Of a DNA stretch of 64,000 nucleotides, positions 37,246 to 45,882 are shown one piece after another (the first letter of the stretch is position 1; every line of letters begins with the position of its first letter). The notes below the pieces were generated by a model that was not told the origin of the DNA, did not search any database, and was given only the letters and a program-made list of their open reading frames with translations. The position numbers and the translations under genes were made by a program. The stretch lies in IMG/VR virus record IMGVR_UViG_3300037313_000650. One strand, given 5' to 3'. Origin of the DNA: a virus. Lineage: Duplodnaviria; Heunggongvirae; Uroviricota; Caudoviricetes.

Positions 37246-37508
37246 ATAGAAGGTTTTGGTACAAGCTTAAAAGTTCTTGTTGGGTCTTTTACCCATACAT
37301 TCATATTGCTGAAAGGGTTGAATAATTTTATCTTCTTATTTTCATCACACCATTTTATTACCTCTGCACAAAAATTAACATCCTGCCCTGAATAGTCTAC
37401 TAAATCATGAAGTTCTGTTGCAAACATTCCCCATGTTCCTTTTAACATTAGGTAAGTGATCATTGATTTTCTCCATTGTTCATCTGTCATAAAATTCTCT
37501 TCCTGCAT
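37242..37508 (-). CDS. paralogue C of the tandem family (88 aa)
   Basis: WRKSMITYLMLKGTWGMFATELHDLVDYSGQDVNFCAEVIKWCDENKKIKL. First gene after the divergent control region. Confidence 0.55.
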   Translation of the reverse strand: MQEENFMTDEQWRKSMITYLMLKGTWGMFATELHDLVDYSGQDVNFCAEVIKWCDENKKIKLFNPFSNMNVWVKDPTRTFKLVPKPSI

Positions 37509-37608
37509 AGAACAAATTTAAAAAACTTCTACAACTTTTCATACTTAAAAAAGTTAAACAAAATAATATATAGCGCAAATCCGCTACCAGTAAGGATTTC
37601 ATGGGAAG

Positions 37609-37710
37609 TTTTTTGATATACATCAAATGTTTTTTGATATACATCATAAAACTAGCTGTATACATCAAATTTCTAAAAAAATATTTAACATACTTTGATG
37701 TATTTGTCAT
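37609..37710. promoter_or_regulatory. cluster of 10 to 14-bp palindromic repeats (core ATACATCAAA) in the divergent intergenic region. Candidate operator, iterons or origin.
   Basis: TTTTTTGATATACATCA repeated directly at 37609 and 37630 (21-bp period). TGTATACATCAAAT at 37657..37670. An inverted copy TTTGATGTAT at 37695..37704. All lie in an AT-rich 257-bp region between divergently transcribed genes. Confidence 0.5.
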
Positions 37711-37765
37711 AGTTTTATAGTATATTTGCTTAGAATTTATTACAATTTTATACAAAAACGTTTAT

Positions 37766-38191
37766 ATGTCACAGATAGTATACTCACACCAAAAGATAAA
37801 TCATGAAACCGGAGAAGTTACAGAATCCAAGTTTGTAAAAAAAGAAGTAAAGAGTACGGATGAGTTCATATTCCTATATATAAAACATATAGGAACTCTA
37901 GCAAAACTTCCTTCTTGTGAACTTAAAACTTTAATATGCTTATCTTCTCATATTAATTGGGAAACAGGTGATATAGGTTTATCTCCAAATATTGTAGATG
38001 AAGTACAGAATTGCTCAGAGTTGACTATCTCTTCTATACGTTCAGCTATATCAAGGCTTGCAAAGAAGAATTTTCTGCAAAAGGTGAAGAATAATTGGTA
38101 TAGAATAAATCCAGATATCTTCTGGAGAGGTTCTGAAATTAAGAGACAAAAAATGTTTGAATTAACTTATCAGTGGGAAATAAAAGAGTAG
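37766..38191 (+). CDS. winged helix-turn-helix DNA-binding protein (141 aa), regulator or replication-initiator-like
   Basis: The only plus-strand gene in the window. The C-terminal LTISSIRSAISRLAKKNFLQKV is a classic wHTH recognition helix as in MarR/Rep-type proteins. It is adjacent to the repeat cluster. Confidence 0.55.
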   Translation: MSQIVYSHQKINHETGEVTESKFVKKEVKSTDEFIFLYIKHIGTLAKLPSCELKTLICLSSHINWETGDIGLSPNIVDEVQNCSELTISSIRSAISRLAKKNFLQKVKNNWYRINPDIFWRGSEIKRQKMFELTYQWEIKE

Positions 38192-38255
38192 GAATTTTAA
38201 ATTCCTATAATTAAAAATTTTTTATTTTAATATAGGAATTTAAAATATTTATGTG

Positions 38256-38340
38256 TGGAAGTGGTTGGAATCGAACCAACACCTGTACAGGGCTGCGATT
38301 TTACAGATCGTCCTACCTAACCAATAGGTAGCTCACTTCC
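38256..38340 (-). tRNA. tRNA-Tyr(GTA), class II
   Basis: Acceptor GGAAGTG/CACTTCC. Anticodon loop cTGTAaa. Long variable arm. T-arm GTTGG-TTCGATT-CCAAC. Confidence 0.7.
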
Positions 38341-38416
38341 ATGATAAACTAAATTTTACGTAATAAACTTACCTAGTTTATTATATAAAAACAAGGTTAC
38401 TATATTGATAATCAAG

Positions 38417-38499
38417 TGGAGAGTACAGGATTCGAACCTGTGTCACCAAAGATGACCTTCCATTAGCAACGGAGTACATTACCCCTCTGTCAACTCTCC
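38417..38499 (-). tRNA. tRNA-Ser(GCT), class II
   Basis: Acceptor GGAGAGT/ACTCTCC. Anticodon loop tTGCTaa. Variable arm GTCA-TCTTTGG-TGAC. T-arm ACAGG-TTCGAAT-CCTGT. Confidence 0.65.
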
Positions 38500-38578
38500 A
38501 TTTAGATATCGGAAAATTTCCGATAATGTTGGATATATTATACAAATTCACTCATTTTGTTGACAATATCCAGCATTG

Positions 38579-38663
38579 CGGTGGGTAGAGGAATCGAACC
38601 CCTGTCAGTGTTACCTGCCTTTAATTTTCAAGATTACGCCATTACCAACTCTGGCAACCCACC
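38579..38663 (-). tRNA. tRNA-Ser(TGA), class II
   Basis: Acceptor GGTGGGT/ACCCACC. Anticodon loop cTTGAaa, with one mismatch in the anticodon stem. Long variable arm. T-loop TTCGATT. Confidence 0.55.
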
Positions 38664-38738
38664 AAATTATATCCAGCCAAAACTACCCCAAAAAGTAGAG
38701 TTTTGGCCGGATATAATGAATCTATATCTCGCCAAAAG

Positions 38739-38819
38739 TGCTCCTGAAAGGATTCGAACCTTCACGCCGAAGCAAGGGTTTTTAAGACCCTCATGTACTA
38801 CCAATTTCATCACAGGAGC
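38739..38819 (-). tRNA. tRNA-Leu(TAA), class II
   Basis: Acceptor GCTCCTG/CAGGAGC. Anticodon stem AGGGT/ACCCT with loop cTTAAaa. Long variable arm. T-loop TTCGAAT. Confidence 0.65.
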
Positions 38820-38824
38820 ATTTG

Positions 38825-38899
38825 TACACCTAGTCAGATTCGAACTGACACTACCATGTTCCTAAGACATGTGACTCCTTCCGATTGGTCTATAGGTGC
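38825..38899 (-). tRNA. atypical tRNA with anticodon TAG (Leu-like) but a short variable loop and a 12-nt D-loop
   Basis: Acceptor GCACCTA/TAGGTGT (G1:U72). Anticodon stem CATGT/ACATG with loop cTTAGga. T-arm GTCAG-TTCGAAT-CTGAC. No long extra arm. Confidence 0.45.
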
Positions 38900-38900
38900 A

Positions 38901-38936
38901 TAAAATAAAAATCCCGACCTTTTTGAGATCGGGATT
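38901..38936 (-). terminator. hairpin plus U-run (intrinsic-terminator-like) directly abutting the 5' end of the downstream tRNA
   Basis: Minus strand reads AATCCCGATCTCAAAAAGGTCGGGATT followed by TTTATTTTA. Stem is 8 bp. tRNA 5' end is at 38899. Confidence 0.5.
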
Positions 38937-39222
38937 CTTGTAATAGTAAAAGTAAAATCTAAAACATACTATTCCCAATCTCTTGTAAATTCAAGAGTGA
39001 TAAACTGGAATAATATGATAGTAATTTTTTCATTTTTAAATAAGGTAAATAGTTTGTTTGAGCCTGTCTTCTGGAACACTCCTTACTTTTCTGACATTTG
39101 CTCTCAGTATAGTCTAGTCGGTACTTCCTAACCTTTCTCAGCCTTTCAGAGGCTTACTACTTCGGTAGGTTTCAGAATTTTAAGACCTCATACAATTTTA
39201 TAGTGTTACTCTCAAAAGAACT

Positions 39223-39266
39223 ATTACAATACAATAATACAAAATATTATTTAATCTGCCAAATTT
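39223..39266 (-). promoter_or_regulatory. conserved 44-bp promoter-like motif, copy 1 (Bacteroidetes-type -33 TTTG / -7 TAnnTTTG-like)
   Basis: Minus strand reads AAATTTGGCAGATTAAATAATATTTTGTATTATTGTATTGTAAT. Same motif and spacing as the copies at 42991 and 44211. Overlaps the stop codon of the upstream gene. Confidence 0.5.
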
Positions 39267-39546
39267 ATTTTCTTTCTTGTACAGGGTGTCTCATTAATAT
39301 AGATATTGCTATAGCTGCAATTATTCTTACTTCCTCTAATGCTTTTTCCGAATCTTTAGAAAGAATATATTCTTTAGCCTGTATTGCACGATTGGTTAAA
39401 CTATTAACCCTCTCATCTAAGGGTGTTGGTGGTACATGTGGACCTTTGCCACTTCCCCAATGTTTTTCCTGCCATTTGATTTCATTTTTTAGAATTCTCA
39501 AAGATTCTAAAGATTCAATAGCATCAATAAATTTTTTGTTATCCAT
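39265..39546 (-). CDS. hypothetical protein (93 aa)
   Basis: ORF with protein-like composition. The overlapping plus-strand ORF 39203..39562 looks spurious. Confidence 0.5.
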   Translation of the reverse strand: MDNKKFIDAIESLESLRILKNEIKWQEKHWGSGKGPHVPPTPLDERVNSLTNRAIQAKEYILSKDSEKALEEVRIIAAIAISILMRHPVQERK

Positions 39547-39558
39547 AAATATTAGATT

Positions 39559-40554
39559 TTAAAAGAAGCCTTTTATACCCTTCATATCCTTATTATCCTC
39601 ATCCCTTTGTTTAAAATATTCTTGAATCTGTCTTTTCAATTCTGGACTTCTATCTGTAAGCTGATATATCCCATTCCAATCTTTCTTTAAATCCAGAGAA
39701 GGTGTGAATTTATTTTCAACAAGGATTTGCCATCTATCTTTATATCGTCTATTAACCTTAGCTCCATGAAAGTTATGAATCAATCCACCTTTCATATAAC
39801 CTATATTCTTTTTGATATATTTTAAAGCTCTATCTTGCCATATCTTAAGCATCTCTTTATATTCTTGCTGCACTTTACCATTAACTGATTTCTGCCAATC
39901 ACCAATTAAACATCTTGCCATATGATTATCTCCAGAACCAAGAATAGCCCAATCAATTAACCCACCTAAATCAGAAATAGCTTTCCTTGTAGCTGCCCAT
40001 GCATATCCAGTATGCCACGAATTAGGTCTTCTCCATTTACCGTTGTAACAGTTATTTTCAGCAACACCATTAATATAATCGTGTACAAATCCCGTACTCA
40101 TTGAAAATGGTACATAGTCTGAATCAACATCTATAGCCACTTCAAACATCTGTATCACATCATAGTGCTGTAGCTGATGAATACATTCTCCTACCCAATC
40201 AGGTCTTATAAACTGTATATCTGCATCTATCCAAGCAACATATTCCCAATCAGCAGGAAGCCTCTGAATAGCCAAATTAATCATGTTTTCCTTTATCCAG
40301 ATTTCATGATTGGTCTGTACTTTAATTACTGTATGTTTAGGAGAGGGATGTTCTTCTATTACATGACTTCTTTCACCAAAAGAACATTCAATTGTAACAA
40401 GGTGGGCTTCATCATTTGAAAGTACGTAATGTTCAAAATCTTCATACAACTTCCATCTTTGTCTATATCTTTGAGGATTGAATACGGGAGCAATTACATA
40501 TAGGGGTGTATTTACTTTATCATATCTATGAAAGTTGGATATTTGATTTTTCAT
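39559..40554 (-). CDS. putative GT-A-fold glycosyltransferase-like protein (331 aa) with a DXD motif
   Basis: VAWIDADIQFIRPDW (hydrophobic run, then DxD) and a conserved upstream acidic/His region. Embedded in the tRNA array. Fold assignment is tentative. Confidence 0.4.
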   Translation of the reverse strand: MKNQISNFHRYDKVNTPLYVIAPVFNPQRYRQRWKLYEDFEHYVLSNDEAHLVTIECSFGERSHVIEEHPSPKHTVIKVQTNHEIWIKENMINLAIQRLPADWEYVAWIDADIQFIRPDWVGECIHQLQHYDVIQMFEVAIDVDSDYVPFSMSTGFVHDYINGVAENNCYNGKWRRPNSWHTGYAWAATRKAISDLGGLIDWAILGSGDNHMARCLIGDWQKSVNGKVQQEYKEMLKIWQDRALKYIKKNIGYMKGGLIHNFHGAKVNRRYKDRWQILVENKFTPSLDLKKDWNGIYQLTDRSPELKRQIQEYFKQRDEDNKDMKGIKGFF

Positions 40555-40597
40555 ACATATTAAATATACAAAAAATATTTCAAAATACCAAAAATAG

Positions 40598-40669
40598 TGG
40601 AGGATACGGAATTCGAATCCGTACTGCTAGAATGCAAATCTAGTGTGCAGCCAATAACACTTATCCCCC
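40598..40669 (-). tRNA. tRNA-Ala(TGC)
   Basis: Acceptor GGGGGAT/ATCCTCC with the G3:U70 Ala identity pair. Anticodon stem CTAGA/TCTAG with loop tTTGCat. T-arm ACGGA-TTCGAAT-TCCGT. Confidence 0.7.
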
Positions 40670-40676
40670 ACTATAT

Positions 40677-40967
40677 CTACTTCCTTCTATATTTAGGGTC
40701 ACTACCCCAGAATCTATAGTCACAAATATCATATTGATTTGTGATAGTTCTATAGTGTGGAATTACTGGTTCCATAGGAAGATGCCAGTAATCTTCATAT
40801 CTATTTCTTTTGTAGAAATAGAATTCCATTTCATTCCATTCAGGAAACATTGTTTTACGATATTCAGTAAGGATTTGCCTTACCCTTCTTCTCATCTTCC
40901 TAGCATGAATCTCTTTCATACCTGAAGTGTGGTCTTTACACAAAGGAGTTCTGTAACTTCTGCTCAT
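40677..40967 (-). CDS. small basic hypothetical protein (96 aa)
   Basis: ORF between tRNA-Ala and tRNA-Ile. Arg/Lys-rich. Confidence 0.4.
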   Translation of the reverse strand: MSRSYRTPLCKDHTSGMKEIHARKMRRRVRQILTEYRKTMFPEWNEMEFYFYKRNRYEDYWHLPMEPVIPHYRTITNQYDICDYRFWGSDPKYRRK

Positions 40968-41025
40968 AGTAACTAAATTTTAGTTACAAGGCATCAAATA
41001 CTTTTTTCATGATTAAATATTTAAG

Positions 41026-41097
41026 TGCTCAAGCCAAGATTCGAACTTGGAACCTTCATCGTATCAGGATGACCGTCCACCATTGACATACATGAGC
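41026..41097 (-). tRNA. tRNA-Ile(GAT)
   Basis: Acceptor GCTCATG/CTTGAGC (one mismatch). Anticodon stem TCATC/GATGA with loop cTGATac. T-arm CCAAG-TTCGAAT-CTTGG. Confidence 0.65.
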
Positions 41098-41106
41098 ATT
41101 ATAAAG

Positions 41107-41181
41107 TGGACTCTATAGGGATCGAACCTATGTATCTCTTGATTATGAGTCAAGTGCCTTCACCAACTTGGCTAAGAGTCC
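41107..41181 (-). tRNA. tRNA-Met(CAT), elongator type or Ile2
   Basis: Acceptor GGACTCT/AGAGTCC. Anticodon stem CTTGA/TCAAG with loop cTCATaa. T-arm ATAGG-TTCGATC-CCTAT. Confidence 0.65.
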
Positions 41182-41275
41182 ATTTGTACTATACTCCTCC
41201 TTCAGTGGTGACTGAATCACAACTTAGCCTCAGTTGCTTCGTAGATAGATTCTACAGAGGGTATAGTACTATATG

Positions 41276-41348
41276 CAGAGAGTGGGGGATTCGAACCCCA
41301 GACCTTTTGCGTGACAAGCAAATATGCAGCCGTTACACCACACCCTCC
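41276..41348 (-). tRNA. tRNA-Asp(GTC)
   Basis: Anticodon stem TTTGC/GCAAA with loop tTGTCac. T-loop TTCGAAT. Acceptor GGAGGGT/ACTCTCT with two G:U pairs. Confidence 0.55.
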
Positions 41349-41354
41349 ATATTG

Positions 41355-41426
41355 TATTCCTGAACGGAGTCGAACCGTCATCTTTGGCGTGAAAAGCCAA
41401 CGAACTAACCATTATTCTACAGGAAC
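41355..41426 (-). tRNA. tRNA-Glu(TTC)
   Basis: Acceptor GTTCCTG/CAGGAAT. D-stem GAAT/GTTC. Anticodon stem TTGGC/GCCAA with loop tTTTCac. T-arm GACGG-TTCGACT-CCGTT. Confidence 0.65.
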
Positions 41427-41489
41427 ATGAAACATCAGACCGTATGCCCCTAAGCACCGCTAAGGCTTTCTAATTCCACATCTGATGTG

Positions 41490-41565
41490 TGCAGCATGTC
41501 GGACTCGAACCGACTAATTCCCCCTGTTTGGAAGACAGGTATGCAACCAGTTACACCTATGCTGC
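41490..41565 (-). tRNA. tRNA-Gly(TCC)
   Basis: Acceptor GCAGCAT/ATGCTGC. Anticodon stem CCTGT/ACAGG with loop cTTCCaa. T-arm GTCGG-TTCGAGT-CCGAC. Confidence 0.65.
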
Positions 41566-41688
41566 AATTTGCTAGGTCAACCACTTTCCCTAGCTTGGTG
41601 ACTTGAGGGTTTTTGATTAATTCCGCAGAGTTGTCACTTTACCCTAAACTCCGAATGGCGGTTAACGTGATTACCGAAACGTAGAACT

Positions 41689-42171
41689 TTAAGCAGCTTC
41701 TTTCAAAGCTTCTTCTATATTAAACATATTGCTTCTCTTTCTGCATTCATGGTTAGCTGCTCTTGTAGCTATCATATCTTCAGATTTGAATCTTGCATTA
41801 TGATAACCTTTAAAAGAACTAACCAGATTAGAAGAAAGTGTTTTCTTTAGATCATTATAGTCAAACTCCAGAATAGGACTTACAGGAAGTTCATCTGTAA
41901 GTAATCTAGCAGCTTCCAGAGTTCTCATACCCTCATCATAAAGTCTCATATACTCTACCTTCACTCTATCTACTTCTTCCTTAAATACAATATAATGTGC
42001 TCCTCTAGTGCCATATCTGTAACAGATTGTAGTGGCGTATATTGTATTAGCTTCAGTTTGAGAATCTGTTCCAATATGTATTTTTAGGTCAGGATATAGA
42101 TTCAATTGTTCTAACGTATGTTTTATGATATTTACGTATGAACCATCCACTTTTTTAAAATACCTTTCCAT
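41689..42171 (-). CDS. hypothetical protein (160 aa) embedded in the tRNA array. Possible RNase H-like or RuvC-like fold.
   Basis: ORF. KIHIGTDSQTEANTIYATTIC loosely resembles the first strand-Asp motif of RuvC/YqgF-like nucleases. Weak. Confidence 0.4.
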   Translation of the reverse strand: MERYFKKVDGSYVNIIKHTLEQLNLYPDLKIHIGTDSQTEANTIYATTICYRYGTRGAHYIVFKEEVDRVKVEYMRLYDEGMRTLEAARLLTDELPVSPILEFDYNDLKKTLSSNLVSSFKGYHNARFKSEDMIATRAANHECRKRSNMFNIEEALKEAA

Positions 42172-42188
42172 TGGACAACAATTTAAAG

Positions 42189-42260
42189 TTTCGGAGGCAG
42201 GATTTGCACCTGCGACTAAGAGCTTATGAGACTCTTCTGCTACTACTGCATCACTCCGAA
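42189..42260 (-). tRNA. atypical tRNA with anticodon CAT (Met/Ile2-like) and a non-canonical T-loop TGCAAAT
   Basis: Acceptor TTCGGAG/CTCCGAA. Anticodon stem AGAGT/GCTCT with loop cTCATaa. T-stem GCAGG/CCTGC. T54-G55-C56 replaces the usual T-psi-C. Confidence 0.45.
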
Positions 42261-42268
42261 ATGTTTAG

Positions 42269-42339
42269 CTGCCCTGCTGAGAATTGAACTCAGACCTCAA
42301 TGTTAACAGCATTTTGCTCGACCTTCGAGCTACAGGGCA
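42269..42339 (-). tRNA. tRNA-Asn(GTT)
   Basis: Acceptor TGCCCTG/CAGGGCA. D-stem GCTC/GAGC. Anticodon loop cTGTTaa. T-arm CTGAG-TTCAATT-CTCAG. Confidence 0.6.
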
Positions 42340-42343
42340 TTAG

Positions 42344-42415
42344 TACACCGTACTAGGGTCGAACTAGTAACCTACTGCTTAGAAGGCAGTTGCTCTTCCA
42401 TTGAGCTAACGGTGC
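42344..42415 (-). tRNA. tRNA-Arg(TCT)
   Basis: Acceptor GCACCGT/ACGGTGT (G1:U72). D-stem GCTC/GAGC. Anticodon stem ACTGC/GCAGT with loop cTTCTaa. T-arm ACTAG-TTCGACC-CTAGT. Confidence 0.65.
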
Positions 42416-42472
42416 AAAGAGTGCAGTTGACTTCTAGCTGTCATGTGGTTACTGCACGTTTTATCCACTTTG

Positions 42473-42545
42473 TAGTTCCTATAGGATTCGAACCTATGAC
42501 TATCTCCTTGTAATGGAGCTACGCTACCAACTGCGCCAAGGAACT
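42473..42545 (-). tRNA. tRNA-Val(TAC)
   Basis: Acceptor AGTTCCT/AGGAACT. D-stem GCGC/GCGT. Anticodon loop aTTACaa. T-arm ATAGG-TTCGAAT-CCTAT. Confidence 0.65.
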
Positions 42546-42720
42546 ATTTTATTTCCCAAGTATATTTTTTATCTGCATCTATAATCATGATGTGATCTTT
42601 GGGATAATATTTTCGTTGAGTCATATTAAACCTTCTCCAAGATTTAAGCTCTAATTTTCTTAATTTTGATAATCTGATTATCATATATCAAATATAAGAA
42701 CTATTTTAATTATTTCAAAG

Positions 42721-42791
42721 TGCTCCCTAATGGAATCGAACCAGTATCCCTAAATTAAAAGTTTAGTATTCTACCATTGAACTAAGAGAGC
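42721..42791 (-). tRNA. tRNA-Lys(TTT)
   Basis: Acceptor GCTCTCT/AGGGAGC (one G:U). Anticodon stem CTAAA/TTTAG with loop cTTTTaa. T-loop TTCGATT. Confidence 0.65.
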
Positions 42792-42796
42792 TATGA

Positions 42797-42835
42797 GTAA
42801 AAAGAAAAACCCCAAAGCTCTTTTCAGCCTTGGGG
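42797..42835 (-). terminator. hairpin plus U-run upstream of tRNA-Lys
   Basis: Minus strand reads CCCCAAGGCTGAAAAGAGCTTTGGGG followed by TTTTTCTTTTTAC. It ends 6 nt before the tRNA-Lys 5' end. Confidence 0.5.
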
Positions 42836-42861
42836 TCTTCTTTTATCTTTAGATGTTTCTG

Positions 42862-42969
42862 TTATTTTCCACCACAACCGCAACCACCACCAGATAATAG
42901 AAGCCCCAAGGCAATCTTCTCGTTGCCTCTCGCTTCAATATTATCCACTATCATATATAGGTATGACAT
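42862..42969 (-). CDS. possible 35-aa Gly/Cys-tailed peptide (MSYLYMIVDNIEARGNEKIALGLLLSGGGCGCGGK) in the leader transcript
   Basis: ATG 16 nt downstream of the predicted start of promoter copy 2. Stop is 25 nt before the hairpin. Too short to be in the ORF track. Could be non-coding. Confidence 0.15.
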   Translation of the reverse strand: MSYLYMIVDNIEARGNEKIALGLLLSGGGCGCGGK

Positions 42970-42990
42970 TTTGTGCGGTGTTAAATTTTA

Positions 42991-43034
42991 ATTACAATAC
43001 AATATTACAAAAAATATTCCAGATTACCAAATTT
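42991..43034 (-). promoter_or_regulatory. conserved 44-bp promoter-like motif, copy 2
   Basis: Minus strand reads AAATTTGGTAATCTGGAATATTTTTTGTAATATTGTATTGTAAT. Identical end-to-end spacing to copies 1 and 3. Confidence 0.5.
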
Positions 43035-43050
43035 CTATAGAATTATTTTT

Positions 43051-43221
43051 TTACCAAGTAGTAATTGACTGTCTATAAGACCTACTCATAACTTTAAACC
43101 TGTTAGAATTTTTAAATCTCCTTACTGTAGTTTCAGAAAGACCTAATTTTTCTGCTAATCTTTCATTACCCCATTTAATATAACCGGGATTGTTGATTAA
43201 AAAGTTTTCAATTTTTTTCAT
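43051..43221 (-). CDS. small helix-turn-helix protein (56 aa, MKKIENFLINNPGYIKWGNERLAEKLGLSETTVRRFKNSNRFKV...)
   Basis: ATG at 43221 and stop at 43051. LAEKLGLSETTVRRF is a canonical HTH segment. Below the ORF-track size cutoff. Confidence 0.4.
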   Translation of the reverse strand: MKKIENFLINNPGYIKWGNERLAEKLGLSETTVRRFKNSNRFKVMSRSYRQSITTW

Positions 43222-43307
43222 ATTTAAATATATTTAGTACACTAAAATACACAAAGTATTTGAAAGTATATTAAATATATTGTTAAAAGAACACCTAAAA
43301 GGAGTCG

Positions 43308-43381
43308 AACCCCATAGAGGACTCGAACCTCTACATCTCCTGATTCGTATTCAGGTGCATTTCCAGTTTTGCTAATGGGGC
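43308..43381 (-). tRNA. tRNA-Arg(ACG)
   Basis: Acceptor GCCCCAT/ATGGGGT (G1:U72). Anticodon stem CCTGA/TCAGG with loop aTACGaa. T-arm AGAGG-TTCGAGT-CCTCT. Confidence 0.6.
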
Positions 43382-43404
43382 ATTATGTCTAATTCTATGA
43401 CAAT

Positions 43405-43476
43405 TTACACGAGGGAGTACGATTCCCTAACCTCCAGAGCCGTAATCTGGTGTTCTGACCATTGAACTACAGGTGC
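43405..43476 (-). pseudogene. degenerate tRNA-like element, a duplicate with anticodon ACG, lacking a pairable acceptor stem
   Basis: Perfect D-arm (TA-GTTC-AATGGTCA-GAAC) and anticodon arm (CCAGA-tTACGgc-TCTGG). The T-loop is AATCGTA/ATCGTAC rather than TTCGA. The 3' end cannot pair with 5' GCACCTG. Confidence 0.35.
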
Positions 43477-43479
43477 TTA

Positions 43480-43553
43480 TGGGGTGGAAGTGGGTATCGA
43501 ACCCTAGCCTTCTCCTTCACAGGGAGCTATTCTACCATTAAACTACATCCACC
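43480..43553 (-). tRNA. tRNA-His(GTG) with encoded G-1 and a 3' CCA
   Basis: 5' G-GTGGATG pairs with CTTCCAC-C (G-1:C73). Anticodon stem GCTCC/GGAGA with loop cTGTGaa. T-loop TTCGATA. Terminal CCA present in the DNA. Confidence 0.55.
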
Positions 43554-43560
43554 ATTTTAA

Positions 43561-43633
43561 GTTCCCAACCAAAGATTCGAACTTTGACAATGAGTGCCAA
43601 AAACTCATGTGCTACCGTTACACCAATTGGGAA
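43561..43633 (-). tRNA. tRNA-Gln(TTG)
   Basis: Acceptor TTCCCAA/TTGGGAA. Anticodon stem TGAGT/ACTCA with loop tTTTGgc. T-arm AAAG-TTCGAAT-CTTT. Confidence 0.6.
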
Positions 43634-43637
43634 TATG

Positions 43638-43709
43638 CACGTATGGAGAGATTCGAACTCCCACCAACGGTTTTGGAGACCGTCATACTACCATTATACT
43701 ACACACGTA
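43638..43709 (-). tRNA. tRNA-Trp(CCA)
   Basis: Acceptor ACGTGTG/CATACGT (one G:U). Anticodon stem ACGGT/ACCGT with loop cTCCAaa. T-arm GGGAG-TTCGAAT-CTCTC. Confidence 0.6.
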
Positions 43710-43749
43710 TATGAGCCGTTTTATAGTCTTTCCTGCTCAGGACTTTAAG

Positions 43750-43822
43750 TGGTAATGAGCAGAATCGAACTGCTGACACCCAGATTTTCAGTCTGGTGCT
43801 CTACCAACTGAGCTACATTACC
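43750..43822 (-). tRNA. tRNA-Phe(GAA)
   Basis: Acceptor GGTAATG/CATTACC. D-arm GCTC-AGTTGGTA-GAGC. Anticodon stem CCAGA/TCTGG with loop cTGAAaa. T-arm AGCAG-TTCGATT-CTGCT. Confidence 0.75.
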
Positions 43823-43826
43823 ATAG

Positions 43827-43898
43827 AGGCCAAACAGGTGATCGAAACCTGAACCCATGTTTACAAGACACGTATTTTGCCACTTAAACTATTCGGCC
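43827..43898 (-). tRNA. tRNA-Thr(TGT)
   Basis: Acceptor GGCCGAA/TTTGGCC (one G:U). Anticodon stem CGTGT/ACATG with loop cTTGTaa. T-arm CAGGT-TTCGATC-ACCTG. Confidence 0.6.
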
Positions 43899-43904
43899 TT
43901 ATAG

Positions 43905-43980
43905 AGGTCAAGAAGGGAATCAAACCCTTGTTTCTAGGTTTTGCAGACCTATGCCCATATCAACATTGACGACTTGACCA
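43905..43980 (-). tRNA. tRNA-Cys(GCA)
   Basis: Acceptor GGTCAAG/CTTGACC. Anticodon stem TAGGT/ACCTA with loop cTGCAaa. T-arm AAGGG-TTTGATT-CCCTT. Enlarged D-region. Confidence 0.55.
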
Positions 43981-43984
43981 TATG

Positions 43985-44060
43985 TATAGGTGGTGAGATT
44001 CGAACTCACGACCCCAAGCTCCCAAAGCTTGTGCGCTAACCGGACTACGCTACACCTATA
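43985..44060 (-). tRNA. tRNA-Pro(TGG)
   Basis: Acceptor ATAGGTG/CACCTAT. D-stem GCGT/GCGC. Anticodon stem CAAGC/GCTTG with loop tTTGGga. T-arm GTGAG-TTCGAAT-CTCAC. Confidence 0.6.
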
Positions 44061-44093
44061 TAAAATAAAAATCCCCACATTTCTGTGAGGATT
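44061..44093 (-). terminator. hairpin plus U-run immediately abutting the tRNA-Pro 5' end
   Basis: Minus strand reads AATCCTCACAGAAATGTGGGGATT followed by TTTTATTTTA. The next nucleotide is tRNA-Pro position 1. Confidence 0.5.
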
Positions 44094-44210
44094 CTGTATC
44101 GTTGAAAAGCTGTAAACTATTTCATTATCGGACATACAATACATGAACCCTCACATGTGCCAAAGGGACACTGCGTAAACGGTTGCCATGTATGTGTACG
44201 ATTCATTTTC

Positions 44211-44254
44211 ATTACAATACAATAATACTAAATTTATTTGAAACTACCAAATTT
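44211..44254 (-). promoter_or_regulatory. conserved 44-bp promoter-like motif, copy 3
   Basis: Minus strand reads AAATTTGGTAGTTTCAAATAAATTTAGTATTATTGTATTGTAAT. TTTG, then about 20 nt, then TATTATTG resembles the Bacteroidetes sigma-A -33/-7 consensus. Confidence 0.5.
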
Positions 44255-44690
44255 AATTTAATAAAAACATTACAGTAGTATTCCACATTGCATGTACAGC
44301 TACAGAAGACCAATAAGAATACTTATTCTGAATATATACCCAACAAAGTACCATACCCAATACACCTTGCATAAATAGTGAAAATATACCACCATCATGA
44401 GCAAATCCAAATTCAATAGAGCTAAATATAGCTGCTACCATAAGTAATTCCCCACCTGCATTAAACTGTTTATCTAAATATTTACCTAATGTAAGTGGTA
44501 ATTTTCTATAGTATAATTCTTCCCATAAAGGAGCTATTATACATGTCATAGATATTTCTAATATAGATTTATCAGTATCATTATCTCCATATACAGGTTG
44601 ACCAACTAATTTAGCCATAAACCACGCAATGAAGAATGACCATAATACAAATGCTACATAACCAATTGTGATGTTTTTAATTTTATTCAT
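44253..44690 (-). CDS. CPBP-family (CAAX protease / Abi, PF02517-like) intramembrane metalloprotease homologue (145 aa)
   Basis: All three family motifs are present in order: PLWEELYYR (EExxxR), FGFAH (FxxxH), HAMWN (HxxxN). Hydrophobic segments consistent with about 4 TM helices. Confidence 0.65.
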   Translation of the reverse strand: MNKIKNITIGYVAFVLWSFFIAWFMAKLVGQPVYGDNDTDKSILEISMTCIIAPLWEELYYRKLPLTLGKYLDKQFNAGGELLMVAAIFSSIEFGFAHDGGIFSLFMQGVLGMVLCWVYIQNKYSYWSSVAVHAMWNTTVMFLLN

Positions 44691-44708
44691 GGTGGAAGAG
44701 TTTTATAA

Positions 44709-44740
44709 TTAGAAATAAAAAGGGCTGTAGAAACAGCCCT
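44709..44740 (-). terminator. intrinsic terminator (GTAGAAAC-loop hairpin family)
   Basis: Minus strand reads AGGGCTGTTTCTACAGCCCT followed by TTTTATTTCT, directly after the stop of the 367-aa fibre-like gene. Confidence 0.55.
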
Positions 44741-44778
44741 ATAACATATCAGTAGCAAACCAACAAAGCCTACTGTGT

Positions 44779-45882
44779 TTAAAAGTTTGGATGTATAACA
44801 ACTCCAGTGAAGTTTACTACTACTGTTTTAGAAGTAGAGGAAGTAAATGCAGACTGAAGTTTAAGTTTTAATTTCTCAGCAGCCCTACGAACAATATATC
44901 CGTATTGCTGAACTGTTTGATCAGCAGATGCTTGCGGTGTATCTATATAGTTAACACCTTTCAAATCTTCTGAACCAGCTAATTCTGTAAGAGTAATGCA
45001 TGTTGTAGGTAATGAACCTAGTGTAATTTCAAACTCTTTATTTGAAGATTGATAGTTACCAAAACTTACTGTATATGTAGCACTACCTTTAAATTCTACA
45101 GAACCATCGAATCTATATCTATATTTAGGTTGACCAGATACAAACACTACATTAGCATTTCCTGTAGCTATAAGGGTTAAATCTTTCCAAGTACCATCAA
45201 AGCACGACCTTGCTATCTGGATAGAAGGATTGGTAGAAAGTATATATGGGTCTAAAGTAGTACCTGTACCGCTTTTATTTATACCAGTACCAGCAACAAT
45301 TTTAGTTTCAGAACCATCAGGAGCAGTATATGAAGTTTTTAACTTACCATCATCACCTAATGTAAGCTGATTACCATCATCATTTGAAATGAGAGAAGAA
45401 GGAACCACATCAAATTTCACCTTCTCATCAGCACCGGGATTTACTATAATTTTAGATAAGAAAGTACCATTGGTTAACTTTTCTGTTAGATAACCATTAG
45501 TAGTATCAGCAGATGTAGCTTTAACTTTTACATCTACAGGAACACCACCAACAGTAGAATCTATCTTAAGCTTCTTATCACAACCTGTACCTACAATACT
45601 CAATGAGATGTTTAATCCGGCCTCAACTTTATCAAGTAAGGATGCAGGACATGTATCACTATCATCGGCTTTAACCTTACCTTCATTATCTTTTAAATCC
45701 TGTACAGCAATATTTACTTTGTTTAATACAGTATCACCCTCATCATTATTTAATACACCTAATGCAGTAAGTTCAGTTCCTGTATAAGTAGTACACTTAA
45801 ACGTATTAGGATTTATACAACCACAATTGTCGTAGTTGCTTTCTGCACAAGGGTCAACATTATTACAAGTATCGCAAGACAT
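44779..45882 (-). CDS. tail fibre or receptor-binding-like protein (367 aa) with a Cys-rich N-terminus
   Basis: MSCDTCNNVDPCAESNYDNCGCINPNTFKC, then a Thr/Ser/Gly/Val-rich beta-rich composition. Position at the distal end of the structural module. Confidence 0.45.
   Translation of the reverse strand: MSCDTCNNVDPCAESNYDNCGCINPNTFKCTTYTGTELTALGVLNNDEGDTVLNKVNIAVQDLKDNEGKVKADDSDTCPASLLDKVEAGLNISLSIVGTGCDKKLKIDSTVGGVPVDVKVKATSADTTNGYLTEKLTNGTFLSKIIVNPGADEKVKFDVVPSSLISNDDGNQLTLGDDGKLKTSYTAPDGSETKIVAGTGINKSGTGTTLDPYILSTNPSIQIARSCFDGTWKDLTLIATGNANVVFVSGQPKYRYRFDGSVEFKGSATYTVSFGNYQSSNKEFEITLGSLPTTCITLTELAGSEDLKGVNYIDTPQASADQTVQQYGYIVRRAAEKLKLKLQSAFTSSTSKTVVVNFTGVVIHPNF

Follow-up and report, generated by a model that had tools for sequence, protein, structure and literature searches.

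Each of the three tRNA sub-clusters in a 64,000-nucleotide (nt) stretch of the virus record IMGVR_UViG_3300037313_000650 (the whole stretch is called the window below) is preceded on the minus strand by a conserved 44-base promoter-like motif, a short open reading frame (ORF) and an intrinsic terminator. Judging from the sequence, we propose that these units are ribosome-mediated attenuators of the trp type, transcribed from sigma-A promoters, that gate the expression of the tRNA genes behind them, and we put the probability of this reading at about 0.75. Leader translation and conditional read-through are both predicted by this proposal. To our knowledge, the way in which phages control their own tRNA genes is essentially unknown; such genes are usually assumed to be expressed constitutively, with the function of matching codon usage or of making up for host tRNAs that have been cleaved.

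In the proposed mechanism, a strong sigma-A promoter would start a short leader transcript before each sub-cluster. The promoter would be a local variant consisting of an A-rich stretch, a -33 TTTG, a 20-nt spacer, the -7 box TAWTATTG and the start region TATTGTAAT. The central codons of the leader ORF (segment 1) would name the amino acid of each downstream tRNA one to three times, and the 3' part of the ORF (segment 2) could pair with segment 1. The 5' arm of the terminator (segment 3) could pair either with segment 2, to give an antiterminator, or with segment 4, which together with segment 3 and the T tract would form the terminator. When charged tRNAs are plentiful, the ribosome would cover or pass segment 2, the terminator would form and RNA polymerase (RNAP) would stop a few bases before the first tRNA gene. 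When any listed tRNA is scarce, the ribosome would stall on segment 1, segment 2 would capture segment 3 and RNAP would read into the tRNA genes, RNase P and other processing enzymes then freeing the tRNAs from the read-through transcript. Because the products are the very tRNAs that are sensed, this would amount to direct negative feedback, with phage tRNAs supplied on demand.

The promoter-like motifs

An earlier note on this DNA had described three minus-strand copies of the motif, and we recovered all three exactly as quoted there (copies A, B and C; Table 1). They have the form AAATTTGG-N18-GTAWTATTGTATTGTAAT. The full pattern AAATTTGG-N18-GTANTATTGTATTGTAAT has only these three sites in the window, all on the minus strand, even when up to three mismatches are allowed, and the composite pattern gave no match in 100 dinucleotide-preserving shuffles. 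The genome-wide count of the two conserved ends proposed in that note was less informative when relaxed: exact copies of either short piece occur in the window at these three sites only, but GTATTGTAAT with one mismatch matched 12 times (10.7 expected) and TATTGTATTGTAAT with three mismatches 34 times (31 expected), neither being above chance. It is therefore the composite with its fixed spacing that constitutes the significant signal.

The copies lie, as had been claimed, at the 3' ends of protein-coding genes: copy A (at 44254) and copy C (at 39266) each share letters with the TAA stop codon of the ORF before them, and copy B (at 43034) lies 17 nt past the stop. All three are also upstream of tRNA sub-clusters, but they are not adjacent to them, the first tRNA genes being 152, 200 and 324 nt away (A, B and C). 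Each of these intervals contains the small ORF and the intrinsic terminator, which the earlier note did not mention; between the end of the terminator stem and the first tRNA gene there remain 8 nt in unit A, 13 nt in unit B and 7 nt in unit C. Because a leader ORF and a strong terminator precede the first tRNA, we reason that a transcription unit started at the motif would be conditional, that is, an attenuator.

We used an alignment of the 160-amino-acid RNaseH-like protein encoded within the tRNA array to fetch relatives (3 IMG/VR contigs and 24 metagenome contigs, identified below by L numbers), and scanned these with ARAGORN and a script for terminators and small ORFs. A search of IMG/VR with the strict motif found two contigs only. 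The proposed Bacteroidota sigma-A layout, TTTG followed after 20 nt by TATTATTG or TAATATTG, stands for the -33 element, which is TTTG in all three window copies and in 19/19 leader promoters detected in relatives. It stands also for the spacing, since the 20 nt from TTTG to TA (19 nt from TTGG to TA) are invariant across relatives while the spacer letters vary. It is less exact for the -7 box: TATTATTG and TAATATTG match TAnnTTTG at 7/8 positions, with both n counted as matches. The exact box TATATTTG is present at the syntenic promoters of most relatives, where the clade consensus before leaders is aTAAATTTGG-N18-yG-TATATTTG-yATT; the window and L002 share the variant TAWTATTG-TATTGTAAT.

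In 240 kb of related loci, the pattern TTTGG-N19-TAnnWTTG has 59 matches, where about 1 would be expected. Every one of the 59 is on the coding strand, and 48 have the beginning of an ORF no more than 44 nt away (an ATG is at most 10 nt from the box in 30 cases and at most 44 nt from it in 18 more). One canonical copy, just outside the window, is located at the divergent switch that heads a long block of structural genes, and other copies precede HNH and further genes in relatives. A motif variant, TTTGG-N18-GTAATATTGTATTGTAAT, was also found before an ordinary protein gene in a 158-kb IMG/VR contig (L001:5190-5230); no tRNAs are present in this 11-kb locus, and the variant is therefore not leader-specific in other phages. 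The divergent intergenic region before the structural-gene block (L124:4560-4740, about 3 kb past the window's right edge) also contains, beside a canonical promoter, at least six spaced GGGGTAT(A)-like repeats. These resemble iterons and may mark an origin or sites where a regulator binds.

In Flavobacterium, the sigma-A box TAnnTTTG occupies positions -12 to -5 (PMC9723704), and the predicted start is therefore the G of GTAAT, 5 nt after the G of the box. The conserved 3' block TATTGTAAT would then span about -4 to +5 and so take in the predicted start; in unit A it would also reach two bases into the start codon. We considered this block as a separate operator and rejected the idea, as the block coincides with -4 to +5 and relatives have an equally conserved yATT there. 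An E. coli-type -35/-10 reading (TTGGCA or TTGGTA, 17 nt, TATTAT) would place the start at about the same base and leaves the conclusion unchanged.

The motif has the same tripartite build as the regions upstream of g070, g075, g108 and g110 of the crAss-like Cellulophaga phage phi14:2, with which we compared it: an A-rich stretch, TTG or TTTG, about 19-20 nt, and TAnnTTTG followed by TA, upstream of middle/late genes. In g070 and g110 the ATG follows the box after 4-5 nt. The window motif differs in having TAWTATTG and then TATTGTAAT. The phi14:2 middle promoters have been mapped by primer extension, are rifampicin-sensitive and are used by sigma-70 RNAP in vitro, and such a motif is present at least once upstream of a tRNA gene in 12 of 14 crAss-like genomes (10.1101/2020.03.07.982082). 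The likeness to Bacteroidota sigma-A promoters (PMC9723704) extends to both elements, the 20-nt spacing and the predicted start 5 nt after the box's G; the differences are the single -7 mismatch and flanks that are far more conserved than those of host promoters. The motif belongs to this known crAss-like/Bacteroidota promoter kind, and we take the three copies to be host-type (Bacteroidota sigma-A) promoters with predicted activity and start sites. The suggestion of a phage promoter family read by the host RNAP is thus in agreement with the phi14:2 architecture, the coding-strand bias and the relatives, with the correction that the motifs do not simply read into the tRNAs. The Bacteroidota host that was suggested along with it is consistent with the promoter type and with the crAss-like portal, terminase and giant ORF.

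A phage-directed polymerase might instead read the motif, in the form of a giant virion RNAP, of a sigma-like or appropriator factor, or of an activator acting on the extra conserved bases. In the three copies and in L002, AAATTTGG, the G before TA and TATTGTAAT are identical, which goes beyond the host consensus; moreover, crAss-like phages carry their own RNAP, and the window contains a 4737-amino-acid ORF. We nevertheless consider this unlikely. The virion RNAP of phi14:2 transcribes early genes, which have no common motif, whereas the promoters that share the present architecture are those with rifampicin sensitivity and sigma-70 use described above. Both the elements and their spacing are those of Bacteroidota sigma-A, and the extra identity falls at the predicted start and in the A-rich upstream stretch, as is usual for strong phage promoters.

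Predicted leader peptides and the tRNA genes behind them

The central part of each leader peptide matches the tRNAs that follow. Leader A is MKMN-RTHTWQPFTQCPF-GTCEGSCIVCPIMK, and its residues 5-17 (RTHTWQPFTQCPF) comprise only, and all of, the eight amino acids of sub-cluster A: Pro, Cys, Thr, Phe, Trp, Gln, His and Arg(ACG). Leader B is MSYLY-MIVDNIEARGNEKIA-LGLLLSGGGCGCGGK, and residues 6-20 (MIVDNIEARGNEKIA) are likewise confined to, and exhaust, the ten amino acids of sub-cluster B: Lys, Val, Arg(TCT), Asn, Met, Gly, Glu, Asp, Ile and Ala. Leader C is MKK-LLSYYSSLSLL-NLQEIGNSMF, with residues 4-14 made up only of Leu, Ser and Tyr, the amino acids of sub-cluster C. The correspondence extends to the Arg codon, which is CGT in leader A, with tRNA-Arg(ACG) behind, and AGA in leader B, with tRNA-Arg(TCT) behind. 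When the 271 ATG-started ORFs of 20-60 codons in all six window frames are ordered by their longest run of residues belonging to a given tRNA set, the leader of that set comes first in each case (runs of 13, 15 and 11, against 7, 12 and 7 for the next best). At the amino acid frequencies of the window proteome, the chance of such a run covering the whole set is 7e-9 (A), 2e-4 (B) and 1e-7 (C).

All three leader families recur in relatives, each followed by a terminator and the matching tRNA group (examples are MKAQRTHTWFTCPQCPFGTCEGCSVCVLNL for class A, MYLINMIVDRINGAEKSGSGLLLS for class B and MKQHISYYSSLSLLSIAQAGRTM for class C), and the leader ORFs are kept with synonymous changes. Homologues of leader A occur in L003, L004, L100, L104 and L005, of which those in L004 and L104 would be exactly leaderless, and leader C has ten distinct homologues. 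A DNA pattern for leader B matched 94 loci, of which only three already-known contigs were real; the others were chance matches or unrelated genes. In the loci analysed for both leader and tRNAs, every amino acid with a detected sub-cluster tRNA occurs in its own leader, the exception being L120, where Met is present as the initiator only.

Rearranged arrays provide natural experiments. In L005/L113, tRNA-Cys is located in group B; leader B (MYLIVDNMICGNGRAKE...) has a Cys codon, and leader A (MIKFQHTRFWFTQPT...) has no Cys, and no Cys tRNA behind it. The distant relatives L117, L118 and L120 have a single large tRNA array of different order, with one leader and then a terminator before it. 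These leaders, of 35 (L117:5823-5930), 39 (L118:6659-6778) and 31 residues (L120:6780-6875), each contain all 20 amino acids, for which the probabilities are 6e-4, 2e-3 and 1e-4 respectively (product about 1.6e-10). The three cannot be aligned with one another and yet all hold 20 amino acids, which argues for selection on the composition of the leader rather than on its sequence.

The end of leader B in the window (42862-42892, minus strand), SGGGCGCGGK, has a near-identical Gly/Cys counterpart in L004 (6368-6430). There it is a separate promoter-driven mini-ORF, MKKILTCKKGGGCGCGGTKK, located just upstream of leader A, and it may represent a mobile or fused peptide module. The tRNA-Gly(gcc) of the relatives is absent from the window.

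The proposed RNA switch and its alternatives

Segment 2 of each unit could pair with the 5' arm of its own terminator with predicted duplex energies of -22.6 (A), -26.4 (B) and -13.4 kcal/mol (C); none of 100 shuffles was as good in any unit. Over 26 distinct units, the mean cognate pairing was -16.1 kcal/mol, compared with -9.4 kcal/mol for non-cognate pairing. The part that pairs with the terminator 5' arm was always the 3' part of the ORF, and for 21 of the 26 units no more than 2 out of 100 shuffles of the upstream sequence gave pairing of equal strength.

The terminators differ among relatives and the ORF letters change along with them, the pairing being preserved. The class B partners are GCCTTGGGG/CCCCAAGGC (window), GCCTCAGGGTTC/GAACCCTGAGGC (L002) and GGCTCCGGG/CCCGGAGCC (L004), and those of class A are TGTGAGGGTT/AATCCTCACA (window) and TGAAGGCTGC/GCAGCCTTCA (L004). 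An alignment of eight class B sequences gave changes on both sides at 8 of the 14 pairs of the antiterminator helix. Its covariation was 0.304, against 0.192 for shuffles (0/500 reached it) and at most 0.258 for structures slid by 1-3 columns. For the 1:2 helix and the terminator there were 12 compensatory pairs, again reached by 0/500 shuffles. MAFFT misaligned the L005 terminator in this alignment (A3), and the pair counts are therefore conservative.

Folded free, the leaders formed a 1:2 hairpin inside the ORF together with the terminator (z-scores -5.9, -3.4 and -5.5 for A, B and C). When a ribosome was masked onto the regulatory codons, the 2:3 antiterminator became the minimum free energy structure of units A and B. 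The predicted antiterminator and terminator would be mutually exclusive, and we infer that the position of the ribosome chooses between them.

Several points weigh against an attenuation mechanism of this kind. In unit C, stalling of the ribosome still leaves the terminator as the minimum free energy structure, except while segment 4 is absent from the growing transcript, and in unit A a ribosome at the stop codon leaves segment 2 uncovered, so that the thermodynamic model is then ambiguous; because of these ambiguous or terminator-favouring outcomes, the switch would have to be kinetic. Complementarity between segments 2 and 3 is weak in 5 of the 26 units, where 11-20 of 100 shuffles pair as well. 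A given regulatory codon is present no more than 1-3 times, where the his, leu and thr leaders have whole runs, which makes sensitivity to a single scarce tRNA uncertain, and under strict wobble rules only 9-13 of the 11-15 central codons of each leader are decodable. The -7 box of the window, TAnnATTG, is one position off TAnnTTTG. Promoter-like sites at 42689-42719 and 40561-40592 could transcribe most of the sub-cluster B tRNAs without attenuator B. About 190 nt (39034-39222, minus strand) separate promoter C from leader ORF C; this stretch has no Rfam match and no homologue in the relatives, where the promoter abuts the leader. Finally, the mechanism presupposes efficient translation of near-leaderless mRNAs and coupling of transcription to translation in the host. 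In favour of the mechanism, leader-peptide attenuation has been indicated in Flavobacterium amino-acid operons (PMC9723704), and the host phylum therefore plausibly supports attenuation.

Some of these points would suit another arrangement, in which ordinary host-type promoters serve the small ORFs as independent micro-protein genes with insulating terminators, the tRNAs come from other promoters or from leak-through, and the match in composition is meaningless. There are promoter-like sites inside sub-cluster B, and the L001 motif variant would drive a normal protein gene. Leader A also keeps the pattern C-x5-C...C-x2-C in five relatives, which could suggest a folded zinc-binding peptide; the leader A of L005, however, lacks any Cys pattern. 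Under such an arrangement, complementarity between ORF and terminator, with its compensatory changes, would have no role. The match in composition is far beyond chance, it tracks the relocation of tRNA-Cys in L005, and all-20 leaders recur without sequence similarity. We regard independent micro-protein genes as quite improbable.

Direct sensing of tRNA by the RNA, either T-box-like or by codon-anticodon pairing and without a translating ribosome, might be considered since the regulated products are RNAs and, as with T-boxes, tRNA supply would be the signal. The codons, however, share a single frame that opens with a conserved ATG and closes with a stop, and they change synonymously among relatives, and up to 20 specifier codons within 31-39 codons are unfit for a structured specifier loop. 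An Rfam search of 37500-45500 at E<=1 gave no leader family, T-box or other, but only tRNA-type and weak spurious matches. Direct sensing is thus very improbable. Hardly credible is the view that the repeats are recombination or duplication scars at cassette boundaries of the tRNA region, with no transcriptional role: the copies do mark the borders of genes, many small ORFs have been inserted in this region, and the same arrays of relatives have HNH insertions, but boxes and spacing are kept while the spacer varies, no match falls on the non-coding strand and start codons follow at a fixed distance.

Related systems and the surrounding tRNA array

The proposed attenuators resemble those of amino-acid operons (trpL, hisL, leuL, thrL, ilvL, pheL) and of pheST (pheM) in having a short leader ORF, segment-1 codons, mutually exclusive 1:2, 2:3 and 3:4 hairpins and an intrinsic terminator directly in front of the regulated genes. 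They differ in that tRNA genes are regulated, rather than biosynthetic, transport or synthetase genes, and it is this that sets them apart from the described leader families. Furthermore, the leaders list 3-20 amino acids about once each, where the operon leaders contain runs of one or two; some of the mRNAs would be leaderless, and the units are phage-borne. T-boxes have in common with them the sensing of tRNA status and a choice between terminator and antiterminator; they bind tRNA without a ribosome, have a conserved T-box and one specifier codon, and serve aminoacyl-tRNA synthetase or amino-acid genes.

In the phi14:2 paper there is no description of a leader ORF or a terminator lying between the promoter and the tRNAs (10.1101/2020.03.07.982082). 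In Bacteroides phage crAss001 (L123, 1600-1690), a Bacteroides-type promoter-like sequence and a 4-codon ORF (MIRR) precede the tRNA array, with no leader/terminator unit seen, and the attenuator therefore appears to be clade-specific. A full-text literature search found nothing linking phages or tRNA genes with leader-peptide attenuation, although it covered few subscription journals and so leaves novelty unproven. Compared with the systems above, the unit downstream of the motif would be new in three respects: its target is tRNA genes, its leader works by a roll-call of as many as 20 amino acids, and it is carried by a phage.

We think it probable that the tRNA arrays of this clade regulate themselves through such 'roll-call' leaders, in which the ribosome would read a codon for every tRNA species behind the leader, up to the full set of 20 amino acids, with a shortage of any listed tRNA switching the array on and, in the boldest form of the idea, with the array serving as an inducible counter-measure to host tRNA depletion. 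Replacement tRNAs would then be deployed upon host shut-off or in the face of anticodon-nuclease defences. If the proposed mechanism is correct, it would be the first case of leader-peptide attenuation controlling tRNA genes; this type of control would reach beyond amino-acid metabolism to the translation apparatus itself, and tRNA genes would gain a direct product-feedback loop. Cloned leaders would be testable sensors of individual tRNA supply in Bacteroidota. The all-20 'pangram' leaders provide a striking case in which peptide composition, and not sequence, is under selection. For annotation, ORFs of 24-39 codons in this position would be leader peptides, not hypothetical proteins or non-coding spacers.

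Table 1. Coordinates of the features discussed, numbered from the first letter of the window; promoter, terminator and segment assignments are predictions
Feature	Position	Strand	Remarks
Promoter copy A	44211-44254	minus	-33 TTTG 44248-44251; -7 box TATTATTG 44220-44227; predicted start G 44215
Promoter copy B	42991-43034	minus	-7 box TAATATTG 43000-43007; predicted start G 42995
Promoter copy C	39223-39266	minus	-7 box TATTATTG 39232-39239; predicted start G 39227
Leader ORF A	44117-44212	minus	MKMNRTHTWQPFTQCPFGTCEGSCIVCPIMK, 31 codons; ATG overlaps motif end, predicted leader of about 3 nt
Leader ORF B	42862-42969	minus	MSYLYMIVDNIEARGNEKIALGLLLSGGGCGCGGK, 35 codons; eight homologues aligned
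Leader ORF C	38959-39033	minus	MKKLLSYYSSLSLLNLQEIGNSMF, 24 codons; starts 193 nt after predicted transcription start
Segment 2, unit A	44137-44156	minus	ATGTGAGGGTTCATGTATTG; complementary to 5' arm of terminator A, possible antiterminator strand
Segment 2, unit B	42898-42913	minus	TGCCTTGGGGCTTCTA; pairs with segment 1 (GGATAATATTGAAGC...) or 5' arm of terminator B
Segment 2, unit C	38972-38982	minus	GAGATTGGGAA; complementary to 5' arm of terminator C
Intrinsic terminator A	44060-44100	minus	GC-rich hairpin 44068-44095 and T tract; tRNA-Pro starts at 44059
Intrinsic terminator B	42798-42840	minus	15-bp stem 42805-42840 and T tract; tRNA-Lys starts at 42791
Intrinsic terminator C	38900-38939	minus	14-bp stem 38907-38939 and T tract; tRNA-Leu starts at 38899
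tRNA sub-cluster A	43307-44059	minus	Pro(tgg), Cys, Thr, Phe, Trp, Gln, His, degenerate Arg(ACG)-like copy, Arg(acg)
tRNA sub-cluster B	40597-42791	minus	Lys, Val, Arg(tct), Asn, Met, Gly, Glu, Asp, Met/Ile2, Ile, Ala; interrupted by small ORFs and RNaseH-like gene
tRNA sub-cluster C	38255-38899	minus	Leu(tag), Leu(taa), Ser(tga), Ser(gct), Tyr(gta)
Further promoter TTTG-N19-TATATTTG	42689-42719	minus	Inside sub-cluster B, right after tRNA-Lys, 4 nt before ATG of a 46-amino-acid ORF
Weaker motif relative TTTGG-N19-TATATTTA	40561-40592	minus	Just before a 331-amino-acid ORF
RNaseH-like protein, 160 amino acids	41689-42171	minus	PF04308, E=9e-9; inside tRNA array; same place in relatives, 39-76% identity
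Rce1-like/CPBP intramembrane protease, 145 amino acids	44253-44690	minus	PF02517, E=2.6e-15; directly upstream of promoter A
ORF of 4737 amino acids	4258-18471	minus	Presumed giant crAss-like virion protein/RNAP

All long ORFs of the window are on the minus strand, including the 4737-amino-acid ORF, the portal and the large terminase, and about 32% of its letters are G or C. The terminase shares about 26% identity with its counterparts in crAss-like and Flavobacterium/Cellulophaga phages. A megablast search of GenBank phages with the region gave one spurious tRNA match only and no close relative, and tblastn with the array-embedded 160-amino-acid protein likewise found no close phage in GenBank. 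Neither this protein nor the motif was found in GTDB genomes, so that no host could be assigned from bins. From its gene content, the low terminase identity and the lack of a close GenBank or GTDB relative, we conclude that the window is from an uncultured, divergent crAss-like phage. The same sequence is present in a Logan assembly and in two JGI metagenomes.

The array consists of 24 tRNA genes for all 20 amino acids between 38255 and 44059, in three groups split by small ORFs. A tRNA-like element at 43406-43476 (minus strand) was missed by ARAGORN; it scores 41.2 bits with the Rfam tRNA model and has an ACG anticodon loop and a defective acceptor stem, and probably represents a degenerate duplicate of the neighbouring tRNA-Arg(ACG). 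The RNaseH-like protein may have a role in processing the array transcript. The CPBP protease is unusually placed, between the structural genes and the tRNA array.

In three relatives, a tRNA with the anticodon CTA (amber suppressor) is located between groups B and C (L100:5439, L104:12056 and L107:2103); there is none in the window. The presence of this tRNA suggests TAG reassignment in part of the clade. Genes for HNH endonucleases occur inside the arrays of L103 (4720-5015), L105 (8900-9055 and 7300-7575) and L004 (7640-8020). In some relatives such genes are found between the attenuator terminator and the first tRNA, often with a promoter copy of their own.

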